Source of the DNA: an uncultured Opitutales bacterium
GTDB lineage: Bacteria > Verrucomicrobiota > Verrucomicrobiia > Opitutales > T3Sed10-336
NCBI GenBank assembly: GCA_964645585.1
Contig: CAZYAN010000003.1
Span: 10,673 to 74,672 of the forward strand
DNA: 64,000 bases
Direction: 5' to 3'
Below the pieces are notes generated by a model. It was not told where the DNA came from, ran no database searches, and was given only the letters and a program-made list of their open reading frames with translations. A program made the translations under genes and the position numbers. Below, piece after piece: positions 15,267 through 51,993 of the stretch (its first letter is position 1; every line of letters starts with the position of its first letter).

Positions 15267-17200
15267 GGCGTATCAGGCCTCCTCAGGGTCAGCGATCCCG
15301 AATCGGCCAGACGGCCAATTCTCCCCTCAATAACGTTCCCGCTCATTCCTACGGTTGCGGGCGGCCCGTCTATCCGAAGAACCTCGTCCACATGTACCGA
15401 AGTTGCCTCGTTTTGAATGCGATTGTTTCGAAAATCGATCACAGCCTTGGGTTCATGACCGGTCACGACGAAAAGGGTCTCCACCTCGGTTTTCGAGGAA
15501 GCAGTCGCCGCGATTCGAACGACATTCTGTTCAATGGTCGAGAAGGCCGAGGTCAGAATCGGGCCCCGGAGATCGCGTATTACAATCTCATTTCGTGAAA
15601 AGGCGCCGGCCCCGGCCGCCGGCCCTATGCGAAACAAGAGCGGGTCGCCTCCCGCCTGATCAACCCGGTTTCCAATAATCTCCGTTTTTTGAACCGTTCC
15701 CCCCGACACCAGGTCGACCAGAGATGCTTCTTCAGAATCGCTTACCGGAGCGAGGTTCCGAAAAACGTTTCCCCGAATCGACACAACGGCCTCGTCAACG
15801 TCGTTCGCGAGACCGATCAGCGGGAGGGCCGTTTTTAAATCGGTTCGCTGAAAGTGATTCCGCTGAATTTCGACCGCCTCTCGATCAGCCGGATCGGCGT
15901 TGCGTCGCTGCTCAAGCGACAGACGCGAATCAATAAACCGGTTGCCCGCGACGACCGCCGTCCCCTGTTCAGTTCGAAGAATGCAATCGGCATGGACAAA
16001 GCGATTGCCGGTGACTGTTACATTGTGCCCGAGTCGATGGTAAAATCCGCGGGTGGGCGAATTGAGGATGTCGTTCTCGACGAACAAGAGGCCGGTCGTT
16101 GAAACCTCAACCGCTGACATGCCGTAAATGTCCTCGATCCGGTTGGACGCGATCACGTTCTCCCGGTTTCCGCTGGCCATACCGCCTTTCAGGGAAACCG
16201 CACCGTCGTCGTCCGCGCCATGAATTCGGCGAATGGTGTTGGAAACAACACGATTAAACGAACCGCGCATATAGATCGCATTCGTGTCGAGTCCTTTGTC
16301 GGTGGAATCAATGTCTTCAATGAGATTTCCGCGCACGACATTGAAATCGCCGTATAAAAGCAGCCCCATGAGATTCCCCTCGACGGTTTGCTTTCTCATC
16401 CCGCGAATCACATTCTCTTCAACAACGTGCCCGCCCTGCGATGAAACCGGGGACGAGTCCGCCCCATGCTCCTCGGAATCGCCCAGCCGAATCGCGTATC
16501 CGCCACTTGGAGACGCGCTGCCGGGACGATTAACAACCCCCAGGAAAACATTTCTGACTATCCGCGCGTTCCGGATGTTTGCCCGAATATTGATCGCATG
16601 GGCGTCGATGTTTCGAAAAACGCAGTCGCGCACCACCACCCCCTCGACGCGGTGCATTCGCTGACCTGAACTGCCGGAACTTAATCCGATTGCACCTCGG
16701 TTGGGATCGCGGACTTCGATCCCCTCAAACCGGCACTGCTCAAATTGAATGTTTCGGAGCACGTAATCTTCGCGGCTCACCAAGCCGATCGGTTCAACCA
16801 TCTTCTCAAATCCGATTCCCCGAAACGAGGTGCCGCTCTCGCGCACAAGGATCCTCGCATCGGTACCCTCGCTGGTCAGAACGGATTCCTTGTGATTGAC
16901 GCCAACAACCTGGACCGCGTCATCGATGACCAGGTCCTCTCCAAGCAAATAGCGTCCCGGCGGCACCTCGACCGGCTCCCGCGAATCAGCGCCCGCCTTG
17001 ATGGCTCGCAGGAATGCGCCAACGTCGTTGGCGACGCCATCGCCAACCGCGCCATAATCGCGAACCGACACAGCATTGCCCGGAACGGCCGCCAGCAGCG
17101 AAGCAAGAAGAAATCCGAGGATCTTTATGCGACGGCATCCGCGGCGCGGGTTCGTCGCAAATCCCGCGCGGAGGCAATATCTGAACACGGTGACAATCAT
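15263..17200 (-). CDS. Beta-helix protein C (paralog of A, B, D; lacks the C-terminal module)
   Basis: Signal peptide; SVRDYGAVGDGVANDV; shared motifs AINIR, GGYAIRLG, GADDDGAVSLKGG, YGMSAVEVS. Confidence 0.85.
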   Translation of the reverse strand: MIVTVFRYCLRAGFATNPRRGCRRIKILGFLLASLLAAVPGNAVSVRDYGAVGDGVANDVGAFLRAIKAGADSREPVEVPPGRYLLGEDLVIDDAVQVVGVNHKESVLTSEGTDARILVRESGTSFRGIGFEKMVEPIGLVSREDYVLRNIQFEQCRFEGIEVRDPNRGAIGLSSGSSGQRMHRVEGVVVRDCVFRNIDAHAINIRANIRNARIVRNVFLGVVNRPGSASPSGGYAIRLGDSEEHGADSSPVSSQGGHVVEENVIRGMRKQTVEGNLMGLLLYGDFNVVRGNLIEDIDSTDKGLDTNAIYMRGSFNRVVSNTIRRIHGADDDGAVSLKGGMASGNRENVIASNRIEDIYGMSAVEVSTTGLLFVENDILNSPTRGFYHRLGHNVTVTGNRFVHADCILRTEQGTAVVAGNRFIDSRLSLEQRRNADPADREAVEIQRNHFQRTDLKTALPLIGLANDVDEAVVSIRGNVFRNLAPVSDSEEASLVDLVSGGTVQKTEIIGNRVDQAGGDPLLFRIGPAAGAGAFSRNEIVIRDLRGPILTSAFSTIEQNVVRIAATASSKTEVETLFVVTGHEPKAVIDFRNNRIQNEATSVHVDEVLRIDGPPATVGMSGNVIEGRIGRLADSGSLTLRRPDTP

Positions 17201-19047
17201 TGCACGGATGAGTCCTCAATGACCAATCGGTAAAACGCGGGCTCGCTCCATGGCTGGGGGAGCTCCTCCACTTGGATCGTTTCGCCCGTACCGTCTATTG
17301 TCTCTCCGAAATCGAACCAATCTTCCAAGTCGGTCGAATATTGTGCACGGTATGATTGGTTTGGAACGCTCGTCCAAATCAGCGCCACATCAGAATCCTT
17401 CTGAATAAGCCGCAAATCCTTCGGCATGATCGGTCGCTCAACCGGATACTGATTAAATACAACAACATTATTTAGTACAAGCTCATCGGCTGAGGAAATC
17501 CGAAAGACCTGCGTCTCGCTTCCATTCTGCACAACGTAATTCTCAACGATAGCTACCTGCTGAAGAGTTCCGTTGCCGACAAGATCGATGATCACACGGT
17601 CGACCGGCTCGTAGCTGGCATTCTCAAATCGATTCCCGCGAATCGATACGAAGCGTTCCTGAACATTGTTTGCCAGTCTGATCATTGGAACCGCCCGGCT
17701 CCGGGCGCTGGCGGTAAAGCTGTTTTCATGAATGTACGTGGCGAGACGAGCCGACGGAGATGTGGTTCGCTGACTGAGCCACAGGCGAGAATTGATCAGC
17801 TCATTATCCAAAATATAGGCAACGCCTTGCTCGGTGCGCAGATCGACATCGGCACTCCAGAATGTGTTGTTTGCCACGAGCACCCCCTCCCCCGTTCGCT
17901 GCATAAACCCGCGCGCCGGAGCGTTGAGAATAAAGTTGCCGTAAAATTGCAAAGCGGATGAGGAAACCTCGACCGCCGACATCCCGTAAATATTTTCGAT
18001 AACATTATAGGCAATCGTGTTTCCGTAGTTGATCTCGGAAGCTCCTTTAAAACTGATTGCCCCATCATCATCCGAACCTCTTACTTCACGAATCTGGTTG
18101 AACACGATTTGATTGTAGCCGCCGCGAATATAGATCGCGATCGTGTCATCCCCAAACGACTTCCCATCAAGATTCTCAATCGTGTTGTTCCTGATCACGG
18201 TTGAGTTCCCGTAAACCAGAATGCCCATCAAATTGCCCGCCGTCGTTTTCTTCTTCAGGTTGCGGATCGTATTTTGCTCAATGCGATGCTTCCCCTGGCC
18301 CGACAGCTCGTCAGACTCCCCCGTTTCATCCGTCCCGAGCCGAATCGCATAGCCGCCAAGTTCGCTGGGAGGCGCCTTCTCATTCCGACTGTTTACAAGG
18401 CCGATAAACTCGTTGCCGATGATCCGTGCCTCTTCGATCTTCCCGCGAATGTTGATGGCATGAGCGTCAATATCAAGAAACGAACAGTCGGTAACCACGA
18501 GACTTCGCAACGGATAAAGCTGCTGCGAAGCGTTCCCTGAACTCAAGCCGATTACACCTCGATTCCGATCGCGAATGTGGACTCGCTGGAACCGGCAGCG
18601 CTCGATCGTGATATTCTGGAGAAGGTAGCCTTGACGGCTGACGAGCGCGATGGGTTCGATCATTTCTTCGAACCCAAGGTCCCGAAACGTCGTTCCGCTT
18701 TCGTGAATATAAAAACGGGTCGGGCCGTAACCAGAGGTAATGACCGACGCCTCGCTCCCGCTTCCGGAAATCGTCACCGCAGCCGAAATGTCGATCTCTT
18801 GAAGCACCAGGTACCGTCCCGGCGGCACCGCCACTTCCTCGCCCGTGATGGCCGCCTCGGCCAGCGCCGCGAAAAATGCTGGAGTGTCGTCCGTGACTCC
18901 ATCGCCAGCCGCGCCGAAATGCTTCACGTCCAACGCTTCGATCCGGGAAGCGAAGAGAAAGACCAGGGCGACAGAGAGCAGTGTTTCGTAACGGGAGGGT
19001 TTACTTGGCACGCTTCGCGTAATACTTGGCGTATTTATAATTTCCAT
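17197..19047 (-). CDS. Beta-helix protein D with C-terminal module
   Basis: Signal peptide (IEA|LDV); DVKHFGAAGDGVTDDT; GSDDDGAISFKG; C-terminal WTSVPNQSYRAQYSTDLEDW...FYRL. Start uncertain (overlaps the wzc 3' end). Confidence 0.85.
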   Translation of the reverse strand: MEIINTPSITRSVPSKPSRYETLLSVALVFLFASRIEALDVKHFGAAGDGVTDDTPAFFAALAEAAITGEEVAVPPGRYLVLQEIDISAAVTISGSGSEASVITSGYGPTRFYIHESGTTFRDLGFEEMIEPIALVSRQGYLLQNITIERCRFQRVHIRDRNRGVIGLSSGNASQQLYPLRSLVVTDCSFLDIDAHAINIRGKIEEARIIGNEFIGLVNSRNEKAPPSELGGYAIRLGTDETGESDELSGQGKHRIEQNTIRNLKKKTTAGNLMGILVYGNSTVIRNNTIENLDGKSFGDDTIAIYIRGGYNQIVFNQIREVRGSDDDGAISFKGASEINYGNTIAYNVIENIYGMSAVEVSSSALQFYGNFILNAPARGFMQRTGEGVLVANNTFWSADVDLRTEQGVAYILDNELINSRLWLSQRTTSPSARLATYIHENSFTASARSRAVPMIRLANNVQERFVSIRGNRFENASYEPVDRVIIDLVGNGTLQQVAIVENYVVQNGSETQVFRISSADELVLNNVVVFNQYPVERPIMPKDLRLIQKDSDVALIWTSVPNQSYRAQYSTDLEDWFDFGETIDGTGETIQVEELPQPWSEPAFYRLVIEDSSVQ

Positions 19048-21211: not shown

Positions 21212-22357
21212 CTACACGCGAAGCGGCCGCGATTCGGCTCCGGTTTCCAGCGAAGAGAGCATCGCCGACACCACCGCTTCGCGTCCGGCTGCTCCGAGTT
21301 CAGGATAGATAGGAATACTCAGCACTTCATTCGCCAGCCTGGCCGCCACGGGACAGTTCCCGCTTTGCCCGAGGTTTCGGAAGCAATCCTGAGAATCCAT
21401 CGGTTGAGGGTAATAGATCTCCGAGGCCACGCCCTGGTCCGCCATGTTCTGTCGGATCGCATCCCGACGGCCGTCCGCGATACGCACGGTATATTGATTC
21501 CACGTGTGTTCAAAACCCGCCTCCTCCGCAGGCAAGTGAACGAGTCCGTTCGCGGCAAACGGCTTTAGGATCTCATTGTAGGAGGCAGCGTTCTCCCGGC
21601 GGGCGGCAATCCATCTTCTCCAGTGAGGCAGTTTCACGAGCAGCAAGGCCGCTTGCAATGTATCCAATCGAAAATTACCGCCCACATAACGATGGTAGTA
21701 TTTCGGCCGGGAACCGTGTCCTCGCAAACACCGAGCGCGCTCCGCGAGTTGATCGTCGTCGCAAACGAGCATTCCGCCGTCGCCAAAGCCGCCGAGGTTT
21801 TTTGAGGGAAAGAAACTGAACGCTCCAAAGGTGCCTATTCCGCCCGCCGCGCGACCGCGACAGGTCGCGCCCATGGACTGCGCGCAATCCTCGATCACGG
21901 CCAAATCATGATCGGAGGCAAGTTTCATGACCGCGTCCATATCGGCCATTTGTCCAAACAGATGAACCGGAATGATCGCTTTCGTGCGCGAGGTTACTTT
22001 TCGGGCGGCGTCTTCCACATCGATGTTGAAGCTGCTTTCGAGCGAGTCGACAAATACCGGAGTGGCGCCTGTTCGAGCGATACATCCAGCTGTGGCAAAG
22101 AAGGTGAAACTCGGACAGAGCACCTCGTCTCCGGGGCCGATCTCCAGCGTCATCAGGGCGAGGAGAAGCGCATCGGTCCCGGAGCTCACACCAATCGCAT
22201 GCCGGACGCCCGTCAGTTCCGCGATTTTCTCTTCAAGTTCACCAACTTCCGGACCGAGGATGAACCGGCCCGAGCGAATCACCCGTTGAAATGCTTCCTG
22301 AAAAGCACTCTCCAGCGGCAGATTCTGCGCATTAACGTCAAGTAATGGAATTCTCAT
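21212..22357 (-). CDS. wbpE: DegT/DnrJ/EryC1 PLP aminotransferase (WbpE-like)
   Basis: SSGTDAL, IIPVHLFGQ, IEDCAQS, FSFFPSKNLGGFGDGG, NFRLDTLQAA; adjacent to wbpD/B/A. Confidence 0.85.
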   Translation of the reverse strand: MRIPLLDVNAQNLPLESAFQEAFQRVIRSGRFILGPEVGELEEKIAELTGVRHAIGVSSGTDALLLALMTLEIGPGDEVLCPSFTFFATAGCIARTGATPVFVDSLESSFNIDVEDAARKVTSRTKAIIPVHLFGQMADMDAVMKLASDHDLAVIEDCAQSMGATCRGRAAGGIGTFGAFSFFPSKNLGGFGDGGMLVCDDDQLAERARCLRGHGSRPKYYHRYVGGNFRLDTLQAALLLVKLPHWRRWIAARRENAASYNEILKPFAANGLVHLPAEEAGFEHTWNQYTVRIADGRRDAIRQNMADQGVASEIYYPQPMDSQDCFRNLGQSGNCPVAARLANEVLSIPIYPELGAAGREAVVSAMLSSLETGAESRPLRV

Positions 22358-22361
22358 AGGT

Positions 22362-23069
22362 TCAAAGTAACTCGCTGGTCAGGGCGGCACTCCGTGCTTC
22401 CGCGCGCCGGGCTTTGCATTCGTCGTAGGAAAGCCTCCCCACACTGAGGGACTCCGGCAGCGGCGCCTCCTCGTCGAGATCGAGACAGCGCATCTGTTCC
22501 GTTCCCCCTTCCTTGCGCTCAAGCAGGTAGCGAAATCCGGATTCGGGGCAGCGGCATCGCCCATCCGGTCCAAGCTGCAAAATATGTCCGTGTCGGCTCA
22601 TCCACCCGCGCTGGCGGCCGGGCACACCCACGATCCACGCGTAGTCCGGCACGTCGCGCGTCACCACCGCTCCGGCCGAAATAAAACAATACCGGCCCAG
22701 TGTGATTCCGCAGACAATGGTGGCATTCGCTCCAATCGTCGCGCCGCGACGGATTCGCGTTTCCTCGTAGAGCGTGTGGCGCCGGACTTGGGACCGCGGA
22801 TTGGTAACGTTTGTCAGTACGCACGAGGGCCCGAGAAAGACATCGTCCTCAACGATCGTGCCCGTGTAGATCGCGACGTTGTTCTGAACCTTTACATTGG
22901 TGCCGATCACGACGCCAGACGCGACCATGGTGTTCTGTCCGAAAATGCAATTCGCACCGATCCGGGCTCCTTGGCAGATGTGAGAAAAGTGCCAGATCCT
23001 GGTGCCATCGCCGATCTCGCACGGGTAATCGACGACCGCTTGAGGATGCACGTAATAATTCGCGTTCAT
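22362..23069 (-). CDS. wbpD: UDP-sugar 3-N-acetyltransferase (WbpD-like)
   Basis: IGDGTRIWHFSHI, KVQNNV, VFLGPSCVLTNVTNPRS, GVPGRQRGWMSRHG and a C-terminal CPESG Zn-ribbon. ATG 23069 preferred. Confidence 0.88.
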   Translation of the reverse strand: MNANYYVHPQAVVDYPCEIGDGTRIWHFSHICQGARIGANCIFGQNTMVASGVVIGTNVKVQNNVAIYTGTIVEDDVFLGPSCVLTNVTNPRSQVRRHTLYEETRIRRGATIGANATIVCGITLGRYCFISAGAVVTRDVPDYAWIVGVPGRQRGWMSRHGHILQLGPDGRCRCPESGFRYLLERKEGGTEQMRCLDLDEEAPLPESLSVGRLSYDECKARRAEARSAALTSELL

Positions 23070-23126
23070 GATCTGTAAAAGGGATCCAAGAGCGGCTCCG
23101 AGCCCCAGAAATATCCGCAAACGTTT

Positions 23127-24191
23127 CTAACCTGCCGCTACGCTTTCGGGCTCGACTTCGGGCGCTTCCGGAAGGCGCACCGGCCGGCCGTGCGATTCCA
23201 TTGATTCCTGACAGGCTTGCAGCACACGCAGAACATCCACACCGTTCCCGGCATCGGTCAGCGGCTGCTGACGTGATCGCACACAATCCAGAAAATGGCT
23301 GCACTCGTTCCGGAGCGGCTCCGAGGGTTCATATTCGACCGCGCTCGCCGCCCCGCTGTGGAGATGCGGAATGTGATTTCGCAATTCGACACGCTGGTCG
23401 TAAAGGAGGAGTTTGCGTTCGACCTCGACGTCATTGAACACCGCCATCCGGCGATCCCCCACCACCACAAGTTTCTGCTCTTTGAAGGGATTCAGCCAGC
23501 TAACAAAGATGTGCGAGCGTATTCCCCCGCCGAAACGGAGACACGAGAGCGTCACATCCGGCAAGTCCGGCGTCACAAAGCTTCCGCCCGAACAGGTAAC
23601 TTCCTCAGGCAGGTCGCCCGCGAGGCGAAGAATGACGGCAATGTCATGCGGCGCGAAGCTCCAAAGCGCGTTCTCTTCTGTGCGAATTTTTCCGAAATTC
23701 AGACGATTGGAGTAAATGTAATTGACGGTTCCCAGCTCTCCGGCGGCGATCAGCTCTCGCAGTTTCAAAACCGCCGGATGGTACTCCAGCAGATGCCCCA
23801 CCATCAGGATCCGTCCGGCCGCGGCCGCCAGCGACTCCATCTCCAGGCCTTGCCGAAAATCAAGGGCCAACGGTTTCTCAACAAACACATCCTTCCCTGC
23901 CCGAAGCGCCTCGACCGCCAGCGCGCAATGACTTTCCGCGGGTGTCGCAATCACGACCGCGTCGATGTCCGGCCGCCCAAATGCATCAGAGAATTCCGCC
24001 GAAATCTCCACCTTCGGAGCAAGTTTACGCGCGGTTTTTCGCCCGGGCTCCCCCGGATCACATACGAGCGCGAGCGCTCCAAGGCTGTCGAGGTTGCGAA
24101 CAAGGTTTTTCCCCCAATAGCCGCACCCGAGGACCGCCACAGTCGGAGTCGGCCCCGTTGCCCAGCCGGTTGCTGAAGGAGCCTCGATCAT
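23127..24191 (-). CDS. wbpB: Gfo/Idh/MocA oxidoreductase (WbpB-like 3-dehydrogenase)
   Basis: GCGYWGKNLVRN, VFVEKPLA, LMVGH, ENALWSFAPHD; ATGA overlap with the wbpA stop. Confidence 0.8.
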   Translation of the reverse strand: MIEAPSATGWATGPTPTVAVLGCGYWGKNLVRNLDSLGALALVCDPGEPGRKTARKLAPKVEISAEFSDAFGRPDIDAVVIATPAESHCALAVEALRAGKDVFVEKPLALDFRQGLEMESLAAAAGRILMVGHLLEYHPAVLKLRELIAAGELGTVNYIYSNRLNFGKIRTEENALWSFAPHDIAVILRLAGDLPEEVTCSGGSFVTPDLPDVTLSCLRFGGGIRSHIFVSWLNPFKEQKLVVVGDRRMAVFNDVEVERKLLLYDQRVELRNHIPHLHSGAASAVEYEPSEPLRNECSHFLDCVRSRQQPLTDAGNGVDVLRVLQACQESMESHGRPVRLPEAPEVEPESVAAG

Positions 24192-25597
24192 GCTTTGACC
24201 ACCTTTCCGCCATTGACGCCGACTTTGCTCATCGCATTCCGGGTATCGACGATACAGTCGCTCCACTCAGCCAGTTCACGGTAATCGACAGCGCTATGGG
24301 CCGTGCTGATGACGACACAATCAAACGGTGCGATTGCCGTCTGGCTCCACGCAACCGACTTCGCTCCGGCCCAATGCTCGTGCTCCCGCGTCGGCGGCAC
24401 TTCCGGAATCCACGGATCGTAATATGCGACTTCCGCGCCGCGTGCTTGTAATTGATCCATTAATACAAGCGTCGGCGACTCACGCATATCGTCGACGTCA
24501 GCCTTGTAGGCGAGACCAATCAGCAGGATCCGGCTTCCGCGAACCGGACGCGCTTTCTGATTTAAAGCTTCCGTTACCTTCCGGACAACGTAGGCGGTCA
24601 TCCCGGCGTTCACCTCGCCAGCGAGCTCAATAAACCGCGTGTGCTGCCCGTATTCGCGAGCCTTCCACGTCAGATAAAACGGATCGATCGGAATGCAATG
24701 TCCGCCGAGCCCGGGCCCTGGATAGAACGGCATGAATCCGAACGGCTTCGTCTTTGCCGCTTCAATCACCTCCCAGATGTCGATTGCCATCGCCTCGTAG
24801 ACGACCTTGAGCTCGTTGACCAGCGCGATATTCACACTGCGAAAGATATTTTCCAACAGTTTGGCGGCTTCCGCTGCCCGGCACGAGGAAACCGGCACAA
24901 GGTTCTGAATCGCCCGGCCGTAGACCGCCATCGCACGGCGTCCGCACTCAGGAGTGTAGCCGCCGACAATCTTTGGAATCGACCCGACCTTGCTGCCCGG
25001 ATTCCCGGGGTCTTCCCTCTCCGGCGAAAAAGCCAGATGAAAATCGACGCCCGCGATCAGTCCCGATCCTTCCTCCAGCACCTTCCGCAAATCCTCTTCC
25101 GTGGTGCCAGGGTAAGAGGTCGACTCCAGCACGACCAATTTCGGCTCCGGCACGTCTGACGGCTCACCATCTCCAATAGATGAAAGCCGCCCGTCCAGGT
25201 GAAGCCCGCCATCGCCATCAAGCACGCCGCCAGCGCAGGCAAGATCGCCGATCTTGCGTCTCACCCGCGCTCCAAGATAGGGTGCAATCGTTCGACCGGT
25301 GCTGAGGACGTAAGATACGTCCGGTTCCCGGTATTTATTCAAGGGTGTTGGAACGCAGATGATCACCGCCGAAACATCCGCAACCCGGGAAAAATCAGTC
25401 GAGGGGTCGAACATACCGCCCGCGACGGCTGATGCGATCGATTCGTTCGAAATATGCTTGATATAACTCCGCCCGGAGCGGAGCGCTTCCACCTTGGCCG
25501 CGTCAACATCCAGACCGACCACCTTCACGCCAGAGGCAATGAATTGAAGCGATAGAGGTAACCCGACGTATCCAAGTCCTACGATGCCAATTTTCAT
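24188..25597 (-). CDS. wbpA: UDP-N-acetylglucosamine 6-dehydrogenase (WbpA/WecC family) with ~40-aa insertion
   Basis: GLGYVGLPL, ICVPTPL, ESTSYPGTT, FSPEREDPGN, KLLENIFRSVNIALVNE, GPGLGGHCIPIDPFYL, AYKADVDDMRESP. Confidence 0.9.
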   Translation of the reverse strand: MKIGIVGLGYVGLPLSLQFIASGVKVVGLDVDAAKVEALRSGRSYIKHISNESIASAVAGGMFDPSTDFSRVADVSAVIICVPTPLNKYREPDVSYVLSTGRTIAPYLGARVRRKIGDLACAGGVLDGDGGLHLDGRLSSIGDGEPSDVPEPKLVVLESTSYPGTTEEDLRKVLEEGSGLIAGVDFHLAFSPEREDPGNPGSKVGSIPKIVGGYTPECGRRAMAVYGRAIQNLVPVSSCRAAEAAKLLENIFRSVNIALVNELKVVYEAMAIDIWEVIEAAKTKPFGFMPFYPGPGLGGHCIPIDPFYLTWKAREYGQHTRFIELAGEVNAGMTAYVVRKVTEALNQKARPVRGSRILLIGLAYKADVDDMRESPTLVLMDQLQARGAEVAYYDPWIPEVPPTREHEHWAGAKSVAWSQTAIAPFDCVVISTAHSAVDYRELAEWSDCIVDTRNAMSKVGVNGGKVVKA

Positions 25598-25701
25598 TGA
25601 TTGTTCAGGGAATTGATATTGTTGTTTCGCTTCTCTCAGAGAGCTCGTGGCGCGGTAACAACGCCCGCTTCTTCGAAAAAATTTTTGGGTTCCGCCCCCA
25701 A

Positions 25702-28524
25702 TCAGAACTCCGCCAGACCTGCGCCTTCCACGGCCGAACATTCCAAAATCGCGGGCGGGAGGTCGCGCGGACCGTAATAGACACGGCAAAGCCGTTCGCG
25801 CACAGCGTCCACCGCATCTTCTCGCGCGAGAATCATCAGGCAGCCCCCAAGTCCAGCCCCGGCGATCTGGGCGCCCGCAACCCCTTCGATCGCCTTGACC
25901 GTGTCAGCCATGCAGTCGATCTCCGGCGTGCTGCATGCGTAGTACCCTGGCTGATACATCAGTTGGGCACCGCCGACACGCTCAGGATCCTCACTCGAAA
26001 GGTCCGCGAGGAGACGATACAAATCACCATCCGAGCATCCGCTCGCGTGCGGTATCTCCGACCCGGAGGCATCGCTGGCAACGACGCGATCCCCATCGTG
26101 ACTGAGGTTCATCAGCCGCCCAAATTCCGAAACCCTGCCCTCGCTAAAGAGCCGAATCGCTTTCCTCGCACGCGCGCACTCCGCAATGCCGAAAAGCAGG
26201 ACGCCGCGAATGAAGTAGTGTTCCTGTTCACGATGGCTCGAAAAACTTCTTTCGATCAACTCGGCGTGTTTCGTGCCAAGCGCGTCGCGGATCTCCCGTC
26301 CGGTCATCACCTCGGGAACCTTCAACAGGATCTGGTAGATCTGACTCGTCTTAACCCCCAGCCTTTCCGGATCGATATCACGCAAATGCTCAACCCGCGA
26401 TGCGATTTCGGGAACCCGCTCCTTCAGGAGAGCGAATCCGAGATTGTACGACGCGATCCGCGAGTTGAAGAGGTCGCGCGCACTCGCGCTCTTGGATGCC
26501 TTGATGTGACTGTTTGCAATGACAACACGATACCCTTCCGGCGCATCGACCACGCCGTCCTCTACAAACGGAAGATTCGCGACACGCACGATCTTGTTTC
26601 GCTGTCCCAGGTAAATGGCCGCGTGATCTCCGGCACCGCCGCGCGAACCGACAAACCATTCGCCCTGACCGCACAGATCAATGAATCGCGCGCTGGTCAA
26701 TTCCAGGTTGTTCAACGCGATCGCCGCTTGTGACACGCCAACCACCAGCGATGAACTGCTGCTGAGCCCGGCGGCCATCGGAATATTGCCGGCGACCGCA
26801 AGATCCATTCCTAAAATCCGGATGTCCTGATAATAATGCTGCAACCGAAGCAAAGCTGCCTTCAGGTAATTGCCCCACTCCCCCGGATGCCCGAGCAAAT
26901 GGCTGCGAACCCAGTCACTCTCTACAAAATGAATCCACTCGCTCCAGGCAAACTGCCCGAGGAGTTCACGCATGCTGAAGTCGATCTCGCGAAAACTTTT
27001 TGCCAAGGCGCTGACGCCGACGACCCGATCATCATCCCGCTCCCCCGCCACCACAAAGGTCTCCCGGTCCAAGGCGAGGAAATTATTAGAACCGCCTCTA
27101 TGATCGATGTGACGGCCCATCAGGTTAATCCGTCCCGGCGCGCGAACAATGACTACTTTCCGGTCATACCCGAACCGTTCGCCAAAGACCCGGAGCACGC
27201 CGCGGATTTCATCGATTTTTTCATGATGAACGTTCGTATCCGGTCCGTAAATACGCACGAGCCAGTTGTAAAGAGAAACCCCCGACGCATCGAGCCGACT
27301 CAGCCACTCCCGCACGCTCGCCCGCTGACTCGGAGGCAGCGCCACCCGGCGGCGCCGCTCGACCTCCCGCTCAATCGTCGCCCGCCGTCCCCGCACGTAA
27401 TCCTGAATACGAAGGAGTTCGCTCGGGGAATTGAATCCTTGAATCCAATCGCCCCGGTCGATCATCACGGTGCGGACGCGGAATCGCGGCTCTCCCTCCT
27501 CGTCTTTAATTCGCGGAAGATGCCGAACAAAATCCGTTACATAAAACTCCTGCTGCTCGTTGCGGTTATCCAGGAGACGAACCCCCGCTCGAAACGCCTC
27601 AAACTCGAGCAGATAAAGACTCGGATTCGTCGCCTGACAGCGCGCTTCAATTTCGCTTGCCGTGTAAAAGACGCCGTCCACCGCCAGCTGGTTCGCGGGA
27701 TCATTGACAAACCGCTCGACCCGCTGCCGGTCGAATGGGACTTTGCCATCCGCCATCTCAAGCAATTCGGTGCCGGACAATTTACTTTTTGCCTGGTCCG
27801 GAAAATGTCTCTCGATCACGGAATTCAATTCGTCAACGCCGAAGGGCTCGTTTCGTTCGAGCCGTTTCTTGATCTCATCGACAACCGCTTGTCTCGCGAT
27901 CGTCATGTATTCGACAATCGCGACGGCCTGCCCGGTCGAATCCAGCAGGACACGCCCTTGTCTCTCCTGCAGGCTGCTCCCCTTCTTCAGGGTGAGCAGG
28001 GTGAAGTCCGCCCGCTGGCGGATATGCCCGTCAACAAGCGCGTCAATGGCACCTTGTTCGATGTATTTGTCACCCGGAGTTACCAGCACGGGTCCGTCAT
28101 GCTCCCACCTCTCCAAGGCTTCCGCCGCCGCGCGCGCGGCATGACCCGTTCCAAGGAGCGCCGGCTGAAAAGCGAACATCGCTTCAGGATGATCCTTGGC
28201 AACCGCCGCCATCACCTGTTCAGCGTGCGAATTGACAACAAGCAGAAACTTGCGGAACCGGCTTCGTTTGAACGACGCGATCATCCGGCTGATCGCCGGC
28301 ACGCCATCGATCTCCGAATTTACTTTCGCGAGGTCGGCCCGGCCCATGCGGGAGCCGCGACCGGCGGCCAGAATGACAACCATGGTCCGCGACACAAACC
28401 CGCGGGCGTTGAGACGTTCGTCCGCGGGACCGCGTGCCACGCTTCCTGACGGCTGAGAAATTGTTCGGGTGATCATTTCGGCAGGTTTGATTTGGGGCAT
28501 CAATTCCGTGAAAAATTCCGTCAA
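25702..28524 (-). CDS. Fused GlmU-like sugar-1-phosphate nucleotidyltransferase and galactokinase-family (GHMP) kinase
   Basis: N-term ILAAGRGSRM, LLGTGHAA, PGD, NRNEQQEFYVTD, QGFNS; C-term APGRINLMGRHIDH, IPMAAGLSSSS, GAQIAGAGLGGC. Start may be 28500 or 28476. Confidence 0.85.
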   Translation of the reverse strand: MTEFFTELMPQIKPAEMITRTISQPSGSVARGPADERLNARGFVSRTMVVILAAGRGSRMGRADLAKVNSEIDGVPAISRMIASFKRSRFRKFLLVVNSHAEQVMAAVAKDHPEAMFAFQPALLGTGHAARAAAEALERWEHDGPVLVTPGDKYIEQGAIDALVDGHIRQRADFTLLTLKKGSSLQERQGRVLLDSTGQAVAIVEYMTIARQAVVDEIKKRLERNEPFGVDELNSVIERHFPDQAKSKLSGTELLEMADGKVPFDRQRVERFVNDPANQLAVDGVFYTASEIEARCQATNPSLYLLEFEAFRAGVRLLDNRNEQQEFYVTDFVRHLPRIKDEEGEPRFRVRTVMIDRGDWIQGFNSPSELLRIQDYVRGRRATIEREVERRRRVALPPSQRASVREWLSRLDASGVSLYNWLVRIYGPDTNVHHEKIDEIRGVLRVFGERFGYDRKVVIVRAPGRINLMGRHIDHRGGSNNFLALDRETFVVAGERDDDRVVGVSALAKSFREIDFSMRELLGQFAWSEWIHFVESDWVRSHLLGHPGEWGNYLKAALLRLQHYYQDIRILGMDLAVAGNIPMAAGLSSSSSLVVGVSQAAIALNNLELTSARFIDLCGQGEWFVGSRGGAGDHAAIYLGQRNKIVRVANLPFVEDGVVDAPEGYRVVIANSHIKASKSASARDLFNSRIASYNLGFALLKERVPEIASRVEHLRDIDPERLGVKTSQIYQILLKVPEVMTGREIRDALGTKHAELIERSFSSHREQEHYFIRGVLLFGIAECARARKAIRLFSEGRVSEFGRLMNLSHDGDRVVASDASGSEIPHASGCSDGDLYRLLADLSSEDPERVGGAQLMYQPGYYACSTPEIDCMADTVKAIEGVAGAQIAGAGLGGCLMILAREDAVDAVRERLCRVYYGPRDLPPAILECSAVEGAGLAEF

Positions 28525-28626: not shown

Positions 28627-29850
28627 TCAGGCGCTGCGCGCGCGGCGGACAAAAATGTTCCAAAGCGCGACGCAAGCGTATCGCAGATCAGTCCGAAATG
28701 GCGCCTGCTCATATGCGCGCAAGTACTTCAATTCGGAGGCGACGATCTCATCAAAGGTTTTTGGAAGATCGGCGTAGAACGGAGGCAGCAAGCCGGGAGT
28801 GTACCGATTGCGGATCTCCTGCGCCTCCGGCGGATAGAGACTGAAGTATTGCTGGCTTAACGGTCGAACCCCGACCAGTTTCATTTCCCCTCGCAACACA
28901 TTGAGGATCATCGGAATCTCATCCAGCCACAGACGCCGCAACCACCGCCCCCAAACCGGGATCCGAAAATCATCTTTGAACTTTCCGCCTTCTTGAAGGT
29001 TGTTGCGCCGATACACGTACTCTTGCAAAAATTCGGCGTACGGGTGCATCGTTCGCAATTTATAAACGACAAACATTTCCCCGCCCCGACCATGCCGCTT
29101 CAGCGCGCAACACGGACCATACGTCGGATCGCGCACGAACTCCGCCTCACGAACTTTCCGCACGACAAAATGCATCAATCCGCCCTGGTCGCGATGCTCC
29201 ACGATTTCAAATCCGCACGAGACGAGTCTGCCGAGGGCTTCGGCCTCTGACAGCGGTCGACTATGTCCTTTCGTGCAGGCAAAGTAGCTCCTTCTTAGTC
29301 CCGGCAGTTTCGGCCAGACGCGATGAACGAGCCAATCGACAAAATAAATTCCTGTTGCGAGAACCGGCGGATATTTTCGATGAATTCGTTCCCGCCGCTG
29401 CGCGTTGGTTTCAAAGCAACCGACGAACAATCCTCCGATCTTCAGCCGAGAATTAACCGCCCGGAAGAATTTGTTGATCCACCGCGAATTGTTGATCTTC
29501 TGCAAAACACCAATGGCGTCCCACCCCGGCGCCAGCGCCTCGACATGCGACCGCTTGATACTGCCGACGAGCCGCACACGCTGAGCATCGGGATCGAGGC
29601 GGCCCCGAAAGAACGCGTCCACCTCGGACGGTGTCCGCCCGCCTTCGGCAACTCGCGGCCGATCAGCCACCGGCGGAGCGAACAGCATCGGCGTATCCCA
29701 AACCGAAAAGAGCGGCGGATCATCGTACTCAACAACTGATGCCCCCGGAAATGAATTGCGCCTGCGTTTTAGGAACCCGCGACGCTGCTGTCCCTGCCTT
29801 CCCCCACCGCTAAACGGTCGGATCGAAACACCCGGCAATCTTGCTCTCAT
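28627..29850 (-). CDS. Priming phosphoglycosyltransferase (bacterial sugar transferase) with N-terminal extension
   Basis: YKLRTM, DDFRI..WGRWLRRLWLDEIPMILNVLRGEMKLVGVRP, TPGL. Confidence 0.85.
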   Translation of the reverse strand: MRARLPGVSIRPFSGGGRQGQQRRGFLKRRRNSFPGASVVEYDDPPLFSVWDTPMLFAPPVADRPRVAEGGRTPSEVDAFFRGRLDPDAQRVRLVGSIKRSHVEALAPGWDAIGVLQKINNSRWINKFFRAVNSRLKIGGLFVGCFETNAQRRERIHRKYPPVLATGIYFVDWLVHRVWPKLPGLRRSYFACTKGHSRPLSEAEALGRLVSCGFEIVEHRDQGGLMHFVVRKVREAEFVRDPTYGPCCALKRHGRGGEMFVVYKLRTMHPYAEFLQEYVYRRNNLQEGGKFKDDFRIPVWGRWLRRLWLDEIPMILNVLRGEMKLVGVRPLSQQYFSLYPPEAQEIRNRYTPGLLPPFYADLPKTFDEIVASELKYLRAYEQAPFRTDLRYACVALWNIFVRRARSA

Positions 29851-33926: not shown

Positions 33927-35086
33927 ACGCCTCCTCCCCCGCTGGAGACCGCTTCCGGCGCTGCCTCGGTGAATTTGCGCAGCCAAGTTTCCCCCTCGGC
34001 CTCATCGCCCGAGGATTCTCCAACCTTTTGCCAGATTCCTCGCAAACGCGCCGCAACTCGGTTCGCTGCAAAATGGGTTTGCGCATAATCGACATTGTAA
34101 GCACCGATCTTCTTGCGCAGGCCCGGGTCAGCAACCAGTCGCTCCAGCGCGGACGCCAATGCGTTCGGATCCGGCGACAGCAGCCAGTAACCCATCTTCC
34201 CGTTTTCGAAAAACTCGGGAAGCCCGCCCACAGGTGTGGTAATGACCGGAAGACCAAATGCCATCGCTTCAAGAACCGAGTTTGGCATCCCCTCGCCGTG
34301 AGTTGACGGAAAGACATAAACGTCCGCCTGCCGGAAAGCCTCTATCTTTTCACCGCCGACACGATAGCCAAGAAACTCCACATGCGGCACACCGCCCCTC
34401 CGGACAATATCCCGCGCGCCCTCGGATTCTCCCCCTTCACCGACCACGAGCAATCGCGTCAATGCCCCTCCCCGAAGCAGTTGTTCGTGAGCTTCGATCG
34501 CAGTATAAATGCCTTTGTCACGTTCCAGTCGGGCAAGAAAGAGGATGTTGCAACGATCTCGATCTCGCTGCTTCGGCCTCCGCGCGGCATTGACCAAATC
34601 GGATCCAACCGTGGTCGTCTCAACCCAAATCGGTCCTCGGAATCCCCACCTGCGGATGCGCTCCTTAAACTCACTCGAAAGGACAATCATTCCGTCGGCT
34701 CGGCCAAAAATCCGATAGAAAACTCCCCGCCAATGGCGGTCGATGGCACCCGCTGCTTTCTCGCTCCATCCCCGAAAGAAAACCACAACCTTCTTCCTCC
34801 GCCATTTCGCCATCAGGAGAAGAAGTCCGTCGCGCATCAGCCCGGATGCGCCGAGCGAAGGGTTCAGGTTCACGAGATCACAATCCCGGGATTCCCGCCA
34901 GAATCGGAAAGAGTCCGTTACAAGGCGAAACAGATCATCCAAAACCGATTGCCTTCCCTCACGCTTTCCAATCGTGAAGTAGTGTACATTCTCGCCTAGA
35001 TGCGGACGCAACGCCTTGTAATAATGCGCGATGCCGCCGTAGCGTTTGCGGCGCTCAAAATCCTTTAAGGTAACCAGGACCTTCAT
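33923..35086 (-). CDS. Glycosyltransferase family 4
   Basis: ILFLARLERDKGI, DVYVFPSTHGEGMPNSVLEAMAFGLPVITTPVGG. Confidence 0.93.
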   Translation of the reverse strand: MKVLVTLKDFERRKRYGGIAHYYKALRPHLGENVHYFTIGKREGRQSVLDDLFRLVTDSFRFWRESRDCDLVNLNPSLGASGLMRDGLLLLMAKWRRKKVVVFFRGWSEKAAGAIDRHWRGVFYRIFGRADGMIVLSSEFKERIRRWGFRGPIWVETTTVGSDLVNAARRPKQRDRDRCNILFLARLERDKGIYTAIEAHEQLLRGGALTRLLVVGEGGESEGARDIVRRGGVPHVEFLGYRVGGEKIEAFRQADVYVFPSTHGEGMPNSVLEAMAFGLPVITTPVGGLPEFFENGKMGYWLLSPDPNALASALERLVADPGLRKKIGAYNVDYAQTHFAANRVAARLRGIWQKVGESSGDEAEGETWLRKFTEAAPEAVSSGGGGV

Positions 35087-35987
35087 TCGTCGTCACTGCA
35101 GTCGATTGGCTCTCGCCATAGCCGAAGGCCGTCCGTGCTCGAGCCGTCATTAAACTCACGAGCCGTCGCTCCCATGGCCGCAATGTCTTGATCCCGCTCG
35201 ACGCCCGGGCGGGATCGACGCCGCGCACACTAATGCCGGTGTGACTGGATTCTTTTCCCGAAGCGCTGAGCATCGCATCTTCGAAGGGCAGTTCACAAAA
35301 CTCGCACACTCGCCGCACGGCTTCCACCGGCGAGTGGACCAAATCTTCGTACCGAACCACCAGTATCGGGTAGCGTTTCTTATATTGAAAGATCGCTCTC
35401 GCCGTGCGCCTGAACTCAAAGAGGAAGAAGAGCAGGATCACCAAATGAATACCTGGCGCGAGAACCGGATGGTCAGCTTTTCGTCCGCGCGTGCCGGGGC
35501 TCTTCAATTTCGACGCGCACATGGCAAATGGATCGCGGACAAGAAAAATACACTTCGCGTCAGGGTACCGTTCAATCACATCTGAAAAATGCCGGAAATG
35601 CGCAAAATTCTTAGCCCCGGCCCGCTCCTTCCCCTGCGTTCGCCGTGTAAACTCCAGAAAGGCATCTACCACACCCCACGCGGTTGCTTCTGTCGTCCGT
35701 ACTTGATCGAAGATTGCTTCCAGCGGCATTTTTTCACGATCAAAGTAGCGCCAGAATGCTCCATAGGCTTCGCACGCATACAGGGCCTCAAGGCCGGACC
35801 GCAACCCGCTGTCCGTTGTGAGATCGTACTTCGCCAGCACGTCGAACAATGTCCGCTGCCATGGATTCAGCACAACCATCTCATCAACGGTCATCGCCAC
35901 CCGCGAGTGCAAGTTGAGCATATTCCGCAACAGGGTGGATCCTGTACGGTGCTGACAGAAAACAAAAATTGGTGACTTCCCGCTCAC
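35055..35987 (-). CDS. PAPS-dependent sulfotransferase (Sulfotransfer_3-like)
   Basis: 5'-PSB motif CQHRTGSTLL, 3'-PB motif LVRDPFAMCAS, VRYEDLV; GTG start in a GTGA overlap with the wzy stop. Confidence 0.87.
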   Translation of the reverse strand: MSGKSPIFVFCQHRTGSTLLRNMLNLHSRVAMTVDEMVVLNPWQRTLFDVLAKYDLTTDSGLRSGLEALYACEAYGAFWRYFDREKMPLEAIFDQVRTTEATAWGVVDAFLEFTRRTQGKERAGAKNFAHFRHFSDVIERYPDAKCIFLVRDPFAMCASKLKSPGTRGRKADHPVLAPGIHLVILLFFLFEFRRTARAIFQYKKRYPILVVRYEDLVHSPVEAVRRVCEFCELPFEDAMLSASGKESSHTGISVRGVDPARASSGIKTLRPWERRLVSLMTARARTAFGYGESQSTAVTTNEGPGYLKGF

Positions 35988-37243
35988 ACCAGGGATCGTT
36001 GAAGTTCTTGTTTCTTTTGATGCTCCGGGGCATCCCCGACGTCTTCCTCCTGAATTTCGTCCGAGGGTACCGCCAGCTCCTCGATCGAAGCGAGCAATGC
36101 TCCCCATAGTGAAAAGACGAGAGAAAGCGAGGACACCACGTAATACTGACCGGAGAACGAAATAATAATATAGGCTGCAATAAGCCCGATAAAAACACCT
36201 GTAAATTCCCGGGCTAAGGCCGCCCGCCTGACACATCGAAGCCGTCTCCAGTAATCCAGCCAAAGCGCGGGAATGATCGAAAAGTATAGCAGGAATCCAA
36301 TCAGTCCCGCGCTCAGAAGATAAGCGGCATAATCCGTATGAAGGTCCCGAAAATCGCGCGTAACAGAGACGTAGTTGAAGAGCTCTCTTCCGAATAGAAC
36401 TTCTTTAAGCTCCCCGTATCGAACCAGCTCAATTCCATTGATCATCTCCTGAACCCGCCCAATCTGATCCGGGGTATCGGTTTCTCGCATACGATCTTCC
36501 AAAACGCCGTACACGTGATGAATGTAAAGTGGAAGTGTGGCAGCCGCCAGAAGTGCAGCGACCCCGATCGCCCCGAAAACACGCGTCTTTTTAGGCGTGA
36601 ACACCGTATAAATGACCAAACCGGCGAGAAGACCTAAAAGAGCACCTCGACGGCCGATCAGAGCCAGCGGAAAAAGAGCGAATAACATGATTGTCGCCTC
36701 CCACCAGCGGATTCGAAAGGGTTCGTTTCGGTAAAATCCGACGAGCGGAGAAAAGATCAGCAGGTAGGCAATCAAGTAGGTCTGCTGCACATTCCCCGCC
36801 CCAGCTTTGAGACCCTCCTCGTAATAAGGGTTTATCCCGATTCCGAAGATCTGAGCGATGATAAAGTTGATAAAGAACAGTGCGAGGCAGATCGAAACCA
36901 GCTTTGACAGTTTCCTTCTCGCAGCTTCTCCGCGAATATAGTTGTACGCCATCACAAACATCAGCAGACTGATGGCGACTTTCGCGACAACATCGAAGGT
37001 CTTTACGGGTGCCGACGAGAAGGGAACCAGGCAGATTAAATAAACCAGACAAGCGAAAATAGCCGCGGCGGTCCATGTCAGCCGCACTCCGTCGATCATC
37101 AGCAGCGGAATCATTAACGCCATGAGCGCGGCACGCATGATACCAATGTGCAGGTAGTCTGACGTAAAAAAACCCGCCGTCAAAGATACGAGAACATTTA
37201 TTAGTATGATGAACAGGACAATATCCGCTCGCTTGAAGATCAT
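35984..37243 (-). CDS. Wzy-type polymerase / O-antigen ligase family membrane protein
   Basis: About 10-12 TM segments; GRRGALLG, periplasmic loop with GR and LHTDY...GLIG (Wzy_C-like). Confidence 0.78.
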   Translation of the reverse strand: MIFKRADIVLFIILINVLVSLTAGFFTSDYLHIGIMRAALMALMIPLLMIDGVRLTWTAAAIFACLVYLICLVPFSSAPVKTFDVVAKVAISLLMFVMAYNYIRGEAARRKLSKLVSICLALFFINFIIAQIFGIGINPYYEEGLKAGAGNVQQTYLIAYLLIFSPLVGFYRNEPFRIRWWEATIMLFALFPLALIGRRGALLGLLAGLVIYTVFTPKKTRVFGAIGVAALLAAATLPLYIHHVYGVLEDRMRETDTPDQIGRVQEMINGIELVRYGELKEVLFGRELFNYVSVTRDFRDLHTDYAAYLLSAGLIGFLLYFSIIPALWLDYWRRLRCVRRAALAREFTGVFIGLIAAYIIISFSGQYYVVSSLSLVFSLWGALLASIEELAVPSDEIQEEDVGDAPEHQKKQELQRSLV

Positions 37244-38639: not shown

Positions 38640-39491
38640 TCAGAACTGGCTCGCCTGCCCCGAAGGAACGGGTTCCAGCAGCGGCGCCTTCAATGCCGCT
38701 TTGGCACGGCTCAGCGCCACGGCATCATCATACAAAACGCGATCTCGCGCGCAGATGCGCAGGATCTCCTCGCGAATCTCCGGAGTAACCAGCTTCTCCC
38801 GCTCCTGCCGGGAAACTGGGCTGCGATTCCTCTGGCCAATCGCAATCTTCAAGCCGGCCTGGATCTCGAGCTGCCGCGCAAGGTTCGCTGTATCTTCAAT
38901 TACCCCGCATATTGAGAATTTCCTTAAATTCTCCCGCGCTCGATCAAAAGCTTCGTCACTGCTATAACAGCCATCCTCGCGAACACCGCCCAGAAACCGG
39001 ACGTAATCAACGCCCAGTCGGCGGCCTTCCGGACTGCGAACGTACGCATCCAGGCTGTCTTGGATCTTCCATGGCGAGTCATCGTCCTTCCGGCTGTTGA
39101 AAAAATAGCTCGATAGAAAGCGCGACACCGGATCGCGAAGAACCGTCATAAACAGGTACCGCTCCCGGTGCCGGTTGTACGCGCGTTCCGAGAAGGCGTA
39201 ATGTCCGCTTACAAAACCTTGGCCTTTTTCTAGTTCATACAGAAGAAGTTCTTCGCGAAAGCGCAGGACCGCGGCATAGTCATCCGCAAACGGATCGTCG
39301 AAGCCATGAATGATCCGCGCCGCATCGAGGGATGCCCGGGCGTTGAGGCGTGAATAGGAGATCAGGTACTTTCGACGGATCGCCTGATTGATCGAGACGC
39401 CGCCGCACTTCGCGATGTGAATGAAGCAGAGCCGCGCCGCCGGTTCGATCAATCCAGCGGACATGCCTTTGAGTTTGCGAAAAATCGTCAT
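38640..39491 (-). CDS. Sulfotransferase family 2 (HS2ST/CHST-like)
   Basis: FIHIAKCGGVSI, FVSGH, TVLRDPVSRFLSSY, DRVLY. Confidence 0.85.
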   Translation of the reverse strand: MTIFRKLKGMSAGLIEPAARLCFIHIAKCGGVSINQAIRRKYLISYSRLNARASLDAARIIHGFDDPFADDYAAVLRFREELLLYELEKGQGFVSGHYAFSERAYNRHRERYLFMTVLRDPVSRFLSSYFFNSRKDDDSPWKIQDSLDAYVRSPEGRRLGVDYVRFLGGVREDGCYSSDEAFDRARENLRKFSICGVIEDTANLARQLEIQAGLKIAIGQRNRSPVSRQEREKLVTPEIREEILRICARDRVLYDDAVALSRAKAALKAPLLEPVPSGQASQF

Positions 39492-39513
39492 GATTATTTG
39501 CGGGGTTTTCCGT

Positions 39514-51923: not shown

Positions 51924-51993
51924 GAGCGAGCGGCAGGAAAAACAACGGTTCACCGACCTGTCACGAATGCATCAAACTGTCAAAGGGTTTCGG

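Follow-up and report, generated by a model that had tools for sequence, protein, structure and literature searches.

What does a protein make when it joins a sugar-1-phosphate nucleotidyltransferase to a sugar kinase, and which sugar does that kinase accept when arginine stands where galactokinases have glutamate? These questions are raised by an open reading frame (ORF) at positions 25702..28524 of a 64,000-nucleotide stretch of contig CAZYAN010000003.1 (assembly GCA_964645585.1) from an uncultured Opitutales bacterium; the whole stretch is called the window here. A sequence-only reading of this ORF had described a GlmU-like N-terminal half with a helical insert and without the left-handed β-helix (LbH) domain, a galactokinase-like C-terminal half with an altered sugar-binding motif, and thus an Fkp-like kinase and pyrophosphorylase in one protein. 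Pfam matches, alignment with GlmU, a structural model and matches to the human kinase structure 2a2c bear out the description of both halves. Judged by its conserved residues, the protein is a fusion of a GlmU-type nucleotidyltransferase with a GALK2-like GHMP anomeric kinase, both halves having intact catalytic signatures, and the comparison with Fkp fits. We favour, at about an even chance of being right, the reading that the fusion is a salvage enzyme for N-acetylhexosamine (HexNAc), either N-acetylglucosamine (GlcNAc) or N-acetylgalactosamine (GalNAc), acting as HexNAc 1-kinase and uridine diphosphate (UDP)-HexNAc pyrophosphorylase. The two activities, the use of uridine triphosphate (UTP), the sugar and the link to polysaccharide synthesis are what we infer from homology and gene context.

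A GlmU-type transferase fused to a GALK2-like kinase

The ORF lies on the minus strand, a point that the earlier reading had left unstated; the plus-strand frame is riddled with stops. Counted from a TTG codon at 28524, as is done throughout, and ending at a stop codon at 25702-25704, it encodes 940 amino acids (aa). Alternative starts are ATG 28500 (M9; 932 aa, the form seen in database cluster P0002) and ATG 28383 (M48; 893 aa), and one of these two is likely the true start. M48 immediately precedes VVILAAGRGSRMG, the first conserved strand, and residues 1-37 have a predicted local distance difference test (pLDDT) score below 50 and are predicted to be disordered in the AlphaFold model of the full-length protein, which is confident as a whole (mean pLDDT 88.7, predicted template modelling score (pTM) 0.66). 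Five Pfam matches outline the protein: NTP_transf_3/NTP_transferase at aa 49-205, GalKase_gal_bdg at 447-494, GHMP_kinases_N at 552-640 and GHMP_kinases_C at 857-917. The same scan gave no match of the fusion protein to a Hexapep or LbH domain. A database search found the architecture in more than 1392 homologues, so the fusion is no chance feature, and base composition shows no anomaly across the gene. Neither the signatures nor the model gives any apparent sign of catalytic death in either half. Pfam scans of 14 family members that are long or of odd length revealed no extra informative domain and returned one weak CxxCxxCC match only.

The N-terminal half, aa 48 to ~400 (27325..28383, minus strand), was assigned as a GlmU-type sugar-1-phosphate nucleotidyltransferase from Pfam, NCBIfam and an alignment with S. 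pneumoniae GlmU (PDB 1g95, 4aaw; E 2.7e-11). Its nucleotide-binding signature, LAAGRGSRMG (aa 52-61; 28342..28371, minus strand), aligns with LAAGKGTRM of GlmU and is conserved in the family. The alignment and family conservation together show that LAAGxGxRM, K67, Q120-LGTGHA, GD152, E205, N300 and a NAQGEYYxTD-like motif, here NEQQEFYVTD, are kept at their GlmU positions. Q120 and G125 align with residues that we take to bind uracil in GlmU, and GlmU residues that presumably bind GlcNAc are kept in this half as well. The alignment is interrupted between the IVE strand (E205) and the N..Y motif (N300). This gap is filled in the model by four helices at aa 206-274, an insert of ~70 residues (aa 206-275; 27700..27909, minus strand, from model and alignment) that is present in the ~900-aa subfamily and missing from the ~820-aa forms. 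Scores against the NCBIfam GlmU models are all under their cut-offs of 367-725 bits; the best is 95.4 bits, and TIGR01173 gives 86 versus 366.85. The protein thus agrees with the uridylyltransferase domain of GlmU in its nucleotide-binding signature and at the aligned positions for catalysis and sugar; it has neither a score over the cut-off nor the C-terminal LbH domain. N-acetylmuramic acid was set aside as a substrate by inference, its O3 lactyl group being set against the Asp or Glu at position 474 and E205, which we assume to bind O3/O4.

The C-terminal half, aa 441-940 (25705..27204, minus strand), was assigned as a GALK2-like GHMP anomeric kinase from Pfam, a PDB sequence search and Foldseek. 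Its best PDB sequence match is human GalNAc kinase (2a2c; E 3.4e-27), with L. lactis GalK at 4.9e-19, and 2a2c (GALK2) is also the best Foldseek match of the model (E 3.9e-24; TM 0.84 normalised to the target). Residues were mapped to solved structures through HMMER alignments. The equivalents in L. lactis GalK are Arg36 for R465, Glu42 for R471, Asp45 for D474, Tyr46 for H475, Asp183, the base next to O1, for D633, and Tyr233 for F686. Motif I, GRINLMGRHIDHRGG, spans aa 464-478 (27091..27135, minus strand; PDB alignments) and includes the codon of R471 (27112..27114). The sequence-only reading had noticed this exchange of Glu for Arg, which stands; its coordinates for the motif, ~27092-27138, shift to those given here. 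The family alignment places the phosphate loop of GHMP motif II, PMAAGLSSSS, at aa 582-591 (26752..26781; also Pfam) and motif III, GAGLGGC, at aa 889-895 (25840..25860), and R628-GGAG-D633, which includes the catalytic base by alignment, lies at 26626..26643, all on the minus strand.

The galactokinase-type GHMP machinery is therefore present in R465, D633, motifs II and III and the fold. The GalK signature GR(V/I)NLIGEHxDY is broken at two positions, Glu42 being replaced by R471 and Tyr46 by H475, and the NCBIfam galactokinase model TIGR00131 scores 148.9 bits against a cut-off of 226.65. A GALK2-type assignment agrees with the closest characterised homologue and with Phe in place of GalK Tyr233; the pair F686-N687 at this site matches Phe-Asn of GALK2. 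PDB 9ulx ('AbGHMP') was rejected as a family member, being a distant match only (E 4.5e-12 and 9.4e-16) for which we found no paper. The ESM Atlas returned only unnamed or generic galactokinase-like clusters, and labels in other databases are equally generic (galactokinase, N-acetylgalactosamine kinase, NTP transferase domain-containing protein).

An arginine in place of the galactokinase Glu marks the fused branch

In galactokinases, the Glu that is replaced here contacts the sugar 6-OH. Two more arginines accompany R471: R628, five residues ahead of the base D633, occupies a Glu position of GALK2, and R476 occupies a Cys position. By alignment, then, this pocket has a more basic character than its GALK2 counterpart, with R471, R476 and R628 versus Glu, Cys and Glu. 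Such a pocket favours an alternative in which the fusion salvages a sugar with an anionic C6 group: the uronic acids of GlcNAc (GlcNAcA) or GalNAc (GalNAcA), galacturonic acid (GalA), glucuronic acid (GlcA) or a 6-sulfated HexNAc. In that case R471, at the site of the 6-OH-binding Glu, would pair with the carboxylate, and the product would join the pathway beside or after WbpA, encoded downstream of the fusion. Conservation among close homologues also favours it. The motif GRxNLMGRH[VI]DH[RQ]GG is found in 121 of 121 proteins (the query and 120 listed matches, 51-69% identical). A search with the kinase half found Arg471 in all 109 listed proteins that cover the position (120 were listed, the other 11 being fragments without the region), 12 of which have Glu replacing D474.

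We then compared these with distant relatives. Among 1.84 billion cluster representatives searched, 6205 matched at E<=0.001, 2366 at <=1e-10 and 382 at <=1e-30, and the distant alignment contains the 144 previously unseen proteins among the 150 listed. Position 471 is R in 102 of these representatives, M in 12, V in 9, T in 5 and K in 3, with N, G, S and Q once each and 9 gaps; Glu or Asp occurs in 0 of the 144, which again fits an anionic C6. Nearly all of the non-Arg forms are standalone kinases of 500-560 aa. Steadier positions are H472 and W623 (134 of 144 each), D633 (133), R628 (125) and H475 (119). Read from these alignments, the family signature is GxH[VI][DE]H[RQ]GG ... EW[FY]xGxRGGxxDH, with the Glu lost throughout. 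Because position 471 may be R, M, V, T or K in the wider family, Arg is no family requirement, and the same alignments make Arg471 a mark of the fused branch, not of the whole family.

This variation suggests that position 471 reads the sugar C6 group. It also counts against an anionic sugar as the substrate, since relatives with M, V, T or K have every other signature; the presumed GlcNAc-binding positions retained in the transferase half do so too. Together with the gene context given below, these points make this alternative unlikely in our view. Hydrophobic residues (M or V, 21 of 144) would be compatible with a 6-deoxy substrate in the proteins that have them, and they bear on a further alternative, in which fold and chemistry are the same but the substrate is another neutral sugar (galactose, galactosamine, glucosamine or 6-deoxy-HexNAc) or the nucleotide is the triphosphate of cytidine (CTP), guanosine (GTP) or thymidine (dTTP). 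The TIGR00131 and TIGR01173 scores lie so far under their cut-offs that the family forms its own branch, which is in keeping with such a divergent specificity. Opposed to it are the best matches, a GalNAc kinase and GlmU, the conservation of GlmU-equivalent Q120 and G125, and the amino-sugar gene context; we judge it distinctly improbable.

Neighbouring genes point to amino sugars

Gene neighbourhoods were compared in two sets. The first comprised 80 genome loci, each with flanks of up to 10 kb, whose ORFs were called and clustered together with those of the window (81 loci); the second held 80 metagenome loci obtained with a standalone-kinase profile, in 71 of which the target gene was recognised. 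In the window, the gene downstream of the fusion encodes a WbpA-like UDP-sugar 6-dehydrogenase (24188..25597, minus strand; TIGR03026, 393.5 bits against a cut-off of 189.8), whose likely start, ATG 25597, is 104 bases past the fusion stop. The earlier reading was correct in placing the fusion directly upstream of wbpA, and an anionic C6 substrate would fit this position, as the downstream gene resembles those of UDP-HexNAc 6-dehydrogenases and the locus probably makes a diacetamido-uronic acid sugar. The linkage is local, not family-wide. A BLAST search with the window neighbours found a WbpA-like neighbour in one of 120 other Arg-type loci (L128), and homologues of the Wzz, the transferase and the hexapeptide acetyltransferase in L019 only. 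This last locus comes from the closest public relative, an Opitutales metagenome-assembled genome (MAG) whose fusion is 71% identical. It shares with the window a glycosyltransferase, two unknown genes, the transferase directly upstream, the fusion, Wzz and a beta-helix gene, and it has no WbpABDE block between fusion and Wzz. A conserved operon with wbpA was rejected on these grounds and for want of a recurrent neighbour family, and the rarity of the linkage weighs against an anionic C6 substrate too.

The recurring neighbours that are informative belong to amino-sugar metabolism. A NagA homologue directly adjoins an Arg-type member in three loci (L056, L062 and L117), the first of which is a Nitrospirota row that groups with the window and L019 in the tree described below and the second a Planctomycetota row of another subclade. 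It is three genes away in L127 and five in L186, both Arg-type. On the same strand, L127 also encodes an ABC permease, an N-acylglucosamine 2-epimerase (AGE), a PIG-L/BshB1-type deacetylase and a further amidohydrolase. TIGR00221 (nagA) is the sole or best NCBIfam family for all six NagA-like proteins scanned, and the L127 protein, at 280 bits, is over the cut-off of 225.65. A Thr-type standalone lineage (GTHIDHRGG) has a fixed block of a NagA-like protein, the kinase, a NagB-like protein, a heparinase II/III-like lyase and a glucuronyl-esterase-like protein; in 15 Thr-type loci, NagA-like genes were counted in 8-10, NagB-like genes in 9 and the lyase in 7-8. The substrates of NagA enzymes are 6-phosphorylated, not 6-carboxy, sugars, and Arg-type and Thr-type members alike adjoin NagA-type genes, which argues against an anionic C6. 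The recurrent neighbour clusters contain no uronate-pathway family, although no search for such genes by name was made. The step in the sequence-only reading from Arg to a uronic or N-acetyl-aminuronic substrate is therefore not supported: position 471 varies, the neighbours are amino-sugar genes and the wbpA link is exceptional.

Other neighbours recur on a small scale. Wzz lies directly downstream of the fusion in L019, in L118 and L120, which have an 883-aa form, and in L121 and L122, which have an 823-aa form; L120 has Wzy and flippase genes nearby. In L118, L120, L121 and L122, and so with two size classes of the fusion, Wzz is followed by a B12-binding radical SAM protein with DUF4080. 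Sulfatases and a sodium:solute symporter are weaker neighbours, each in 4 loci; the symporter was dropped as uninformative because its family is generic. The Thr-type block was seen on metagenome contigs (L159, L164, L167, L170, L174, L175, L176, L181 and L184) and may represent an undescribed amino-sugar route with a galactokinase-like kinase at the expected place of NagK.

Proposed function

We favour HexNAc as the substrate because the kinase half is best matched by an enzyme that acts on GalNAc and the transferase half by one that acts on GlcNAc-1-phosphate, and because the recurring informative neighbours are amino-sugar genes beside Arg-type and Thr-type members alike. In the proposed reaction, the C-terminal GHMP kinase would use adenosine triphosphate (ATP) to phosphorylate the anomeric OH of free HexNAc, with D633 as the likely base and R465 placed where the phosphoryl group is transferred; motifs II and III are predicted to bind ATP. 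The N-terminal GlmU-type half would then convert the sugar-1-phosphate and UTP to UDP-HexNAc and pyrophosphate.

Several observations weigh against this proposal. A neutral HexNAc would leave the invariant R471, and with it the basic pocket formed by R476 and R628, unexplained. Every NCBIfam GalK and GlmU score is under its cut-off, and our literature searches found no assay of any family member. The gene context is also thin: any single neighbour family occurs in at most 6 of the 81 genome loci, and NagA-like genes are found in just 5 of the 121 Arg-type loci, sparse though in separate lineages, with the scanned proteins other than that of L127 scoring 170-200 bits, below the TIGR00221 cut-off. 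The organisms behind the Thr-type loci are probably relatives of one another, and these loci do not count independently. In the window itself, a terminator-like hairpin with a T-run directly 3' of the fusion stop (25685..25701, minus strand) separates the fusion from the wbpA-like gene; this feature is weak, as the region has five terminator-like sites against a shuffle mean of 4.3, a count not above chance.

The polysaccharide locus of the window

On the minus strand of the window, the genes run in the order Bac_transf, fusion, WbpA-like, WbpB-like GFO oxidoreductase, WbpD-like hexapeptide acetyltransferase, WbpE-like DegT aminotransferase, Wzz/tyrosine-kinase and two beta-helix proteins. Bac_transf, a phosphoglycosyl transferase by Pfam, lies upstream of the fusion at 28627..29850 (minus strand), a pairing kept in L019. 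The four-gene block of WbpA-, WbpB-, WbpD- and WbpE-like genes occupies 21212-25597 (minus strand) and suggests a pathway to a UDP-2,3-diacetamido-2,3-dideoxy-uronic acid. Placed between the priming phosphoglycosyl transferase and this block, the fusion would turn a scavenged sugar into UDP-HexNAc for both the transferase and the WbpA-like pathway. Upstream of Bac_transf are glycosyltransferases, a Wzy-like protein, two sulfotransferases and an ABC exporter. The sulfotransferases, Sulfotransfer_3 (35055-36263) and Sulfotransfer_2 (38640-39548), both on the minus strand, stand beside the Wzy-like, GT4 and ABC exporter genes, and the product of the locus is probably a sulfated polysaccharide.

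One extension of these observations, which we hold to be doubtful, makes position 471 a selector for C6. Arg-type members, all of them fused among close homologues, would take HexNAc with an anionic C6, the standalone Met, Val and Thr forms would take neutral or 6-deoxy sugars, and the fusion of the window would recycle the acidic monomer of its own sulfated diacetamido-uronic polysaccharide to the UDP form, in parallel to WbpA.

Other genes of the window may act on related polymers. A sulfatase with an N-sulphoglucosamine sulphohydrolase C-terminal domain is encoded at 50409-51953 (minus strand), and similar sulfatases adjoin the fusion in L143, L144 and L109. Four beta-helix proteins of the pectate-lyase/epimerase type flank the locus, at 6724-8733 and 8910-12551 (plus strand) and at 15263-17200 and 17197-19047 (minus strand); they are possible polymer-modifying or polymer-cutting enzymes. 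An 1100-aa protein at 1758-5060 (plus strand) has NAGPA (GlcNAc-1-phosphodiester glycosidase-type), Big_2 and calcineurin-like phosphoesterase domains and is a possible GlcNAc-releasing enzyme.

GlmU in the genomes that carry the fusion

We also considered whether the fusion might replace housekeeping GlmU as the main UDP-GlcNAc pyrophosphorylase of the cell. Three observations favour this. In the genome of the window (97.4% complete), no GlmU exceeds the cut-off and the best GlmU match is the fusion itself (69 bits). Among five fusion-bearing Planctomycetota genomes, a full GlmU over the cut-off occurs in none and a standalone GlmU N-domain in two, and in three of the five the fusion is again the best GlmU match without a GlmU over the cut-off. 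Besides RmlA, the genome of the window encodes a standalone LbH acetyltransferase (L002) that resembles the C-terminal half of (archaeal) GlmU. Opposing these is a UDPGP-family protein (PF01704), 500 aa long and scoring 134.9 bits in the genome of the window and present in 5/5 of the Planctomycetota genomes. The fusion is, moreover, confined to 4 of the 150 other Verrucomicrobiota genomes and about 6 of the 151 Planctomycetota genomes sampled, and it sits here in an accessory polysaccharide locus. Because a PF01704 protein is present and the fusion is patchily distributed, we rejected the housekeeping role, which we regard as very improbable.

As an observation in its own right, all six genomes, that of the window (C1:124254-125180; L002:1477-2166) and the five from Planctomycetota (G151-G155), combine the lack of a full GlmU with a eukaryote-type PF01704 protein of 480-530 aa. 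Two further loci of the window's genome were recorded. Contig C4 encodes an unusual 402-aa fusion (L004:1468-2676, plus strand) of IspD (182.8 bits) with ribose-5-phosphate isomerase B (181 bits), both over the cut-off. On contig C8, the sole NagA-like gene of the genome (168.5 bits, 328 aa) comes directly after Asparaginase_2, of the glycosylasparaginase type (L189:314-2457, plus strand).

Distribution and origin

Matches at E<=1e-20 were found in 5 of 151 sampled Verrucomicrobiota genomes, that of the window included; identity is just 32-37% in the remaining four. Planctomycetota, the phylum of a Thermoguttaceae genome, were likewise sampled with 151 genomes, of which 15 match the family profile at E<=1e-30. 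A strong match to the kinase half (E<=1e-99) was seen in only 6 of these, the rest being short stretches of one half. The fusion is a patchily spread accessory gene.

A quick maximum-likelihood tree was built from 74 full-length rows and rooted at the midpoint only. It left out 11 of the 81 loci (ORF <800 aa or another cluster) and added four Verrucomicrobiota loci. In it the window is paired with L019 (support 100), and the two are nested in a 55-row clade (support 100) whose other rows are from Planctomycetota (51), Nitrospirota (one) and Actinomycetota (one). None of the other Verrucomicrobiota homologues belongs to that clade. This nesting among Planctomycetota rows suggests transfer into Opitutales, and from the tree the fusion was probably acquired from a Planctomycetota-like donor.

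Significance and comparison with known systems

Our literature searches found no paper on a GlmU–GHMP fusion or on a HexNAcA kinase. A tested function would name thousands of generically labelled proteins (382 representative clusters at E<=1e-30). If the HexNAc reading is true, some polysaccharide-degrading bacteria would feed a scavenged amino sugar straight into surface-glycan synthesis, and the fusion would offer a natural one-protein catalyst for UDP-HexNAc and its analogues. Varying residue 471 would provide a handle on how the GHMP kinase fold reads the sugar C6 group.

Fkp of Bacteroides fragilis, an L-fucokinase/GDP-L-fucose pyrophosphorylase (PMC11982464, PMC6468028), resembles the fusion: in a chain of ~950 aa, a pyrophosphorylase at the N-terminus precedes a GHMP anomeric kinase at the C-terminus, and a free sugar is turned into a nucleotide sugar. 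The resemblance does not extend to family membership. There is no match to the Pfam Fucokinase family here and no Fkp among 39 PDB sequence matches; the transferase of the fusion is of the GlmU type and the kinase of the GALK2 type, the nucleotide is probably UTP and not GTP, and the sugar would be another.

Zebrafish DrGKUP, a glucuronokinase/putative UDP-GlcA pyrophosphorylase, also joins an N-terminal bacterial-type nucleotidyltransferase to a C-terminal GHMP sugar-1-kinase for UDP-sugar salvage (PMC3938481). Its kinase, however, belongs to the glucuronokinase branch, its transferase was compared with RmlA-type enzymes, and its pyrophosphorylase activity is reported as one that could not be demonstrated (PMC3938481).

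Each half also has a single-domain counterpart. S. pneumoniae GlmU shares the nucleotide signature, Q-x4-GTGHA and the GD, E and N positions, but the fusion is without LbH and with the ~70-aa insert. GALK2 (PDB 2a2c, 2a2d) shares the Phe-Asn pair at the GalK Tyr233 site and the GxxGG..D catalytic loop, whereas its GEHIDYCGY and GTEGGGMDQ read GRHIDHRGG and GSRGGAGDH in the fusion, and it has no fused transferase. GALK2 partners with AGX1. Plant galacturonokinase GalAK reportedly lacks the galactokinase Glu as well, which would suit the anionic C6 alternative, reads HIDHQGG and is not fused; the fusion family reads H[VI][DE]H[RQ]GG, and the JGI label on its relatives is N-acetylgalactosamine kinase, not galacturonokinase. 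For N-acetylated amino sugars, bacteria have NahK with a uridylyltransferase (bifidobacteria) and AmgK-MurU (Pseudomonas), in which an anomeric kinase is followed by a uridylyltransferase. Those kinases have a fold unrelated to GHMP, and in both pathways kinase and uridylyltransferase are separate proteins. If our favoured reading is right, the fusion would represent a third bacterial route for anomeric phosphorylation of HexNAc, of the GHMP type and already joined to its uridylyltransferase.

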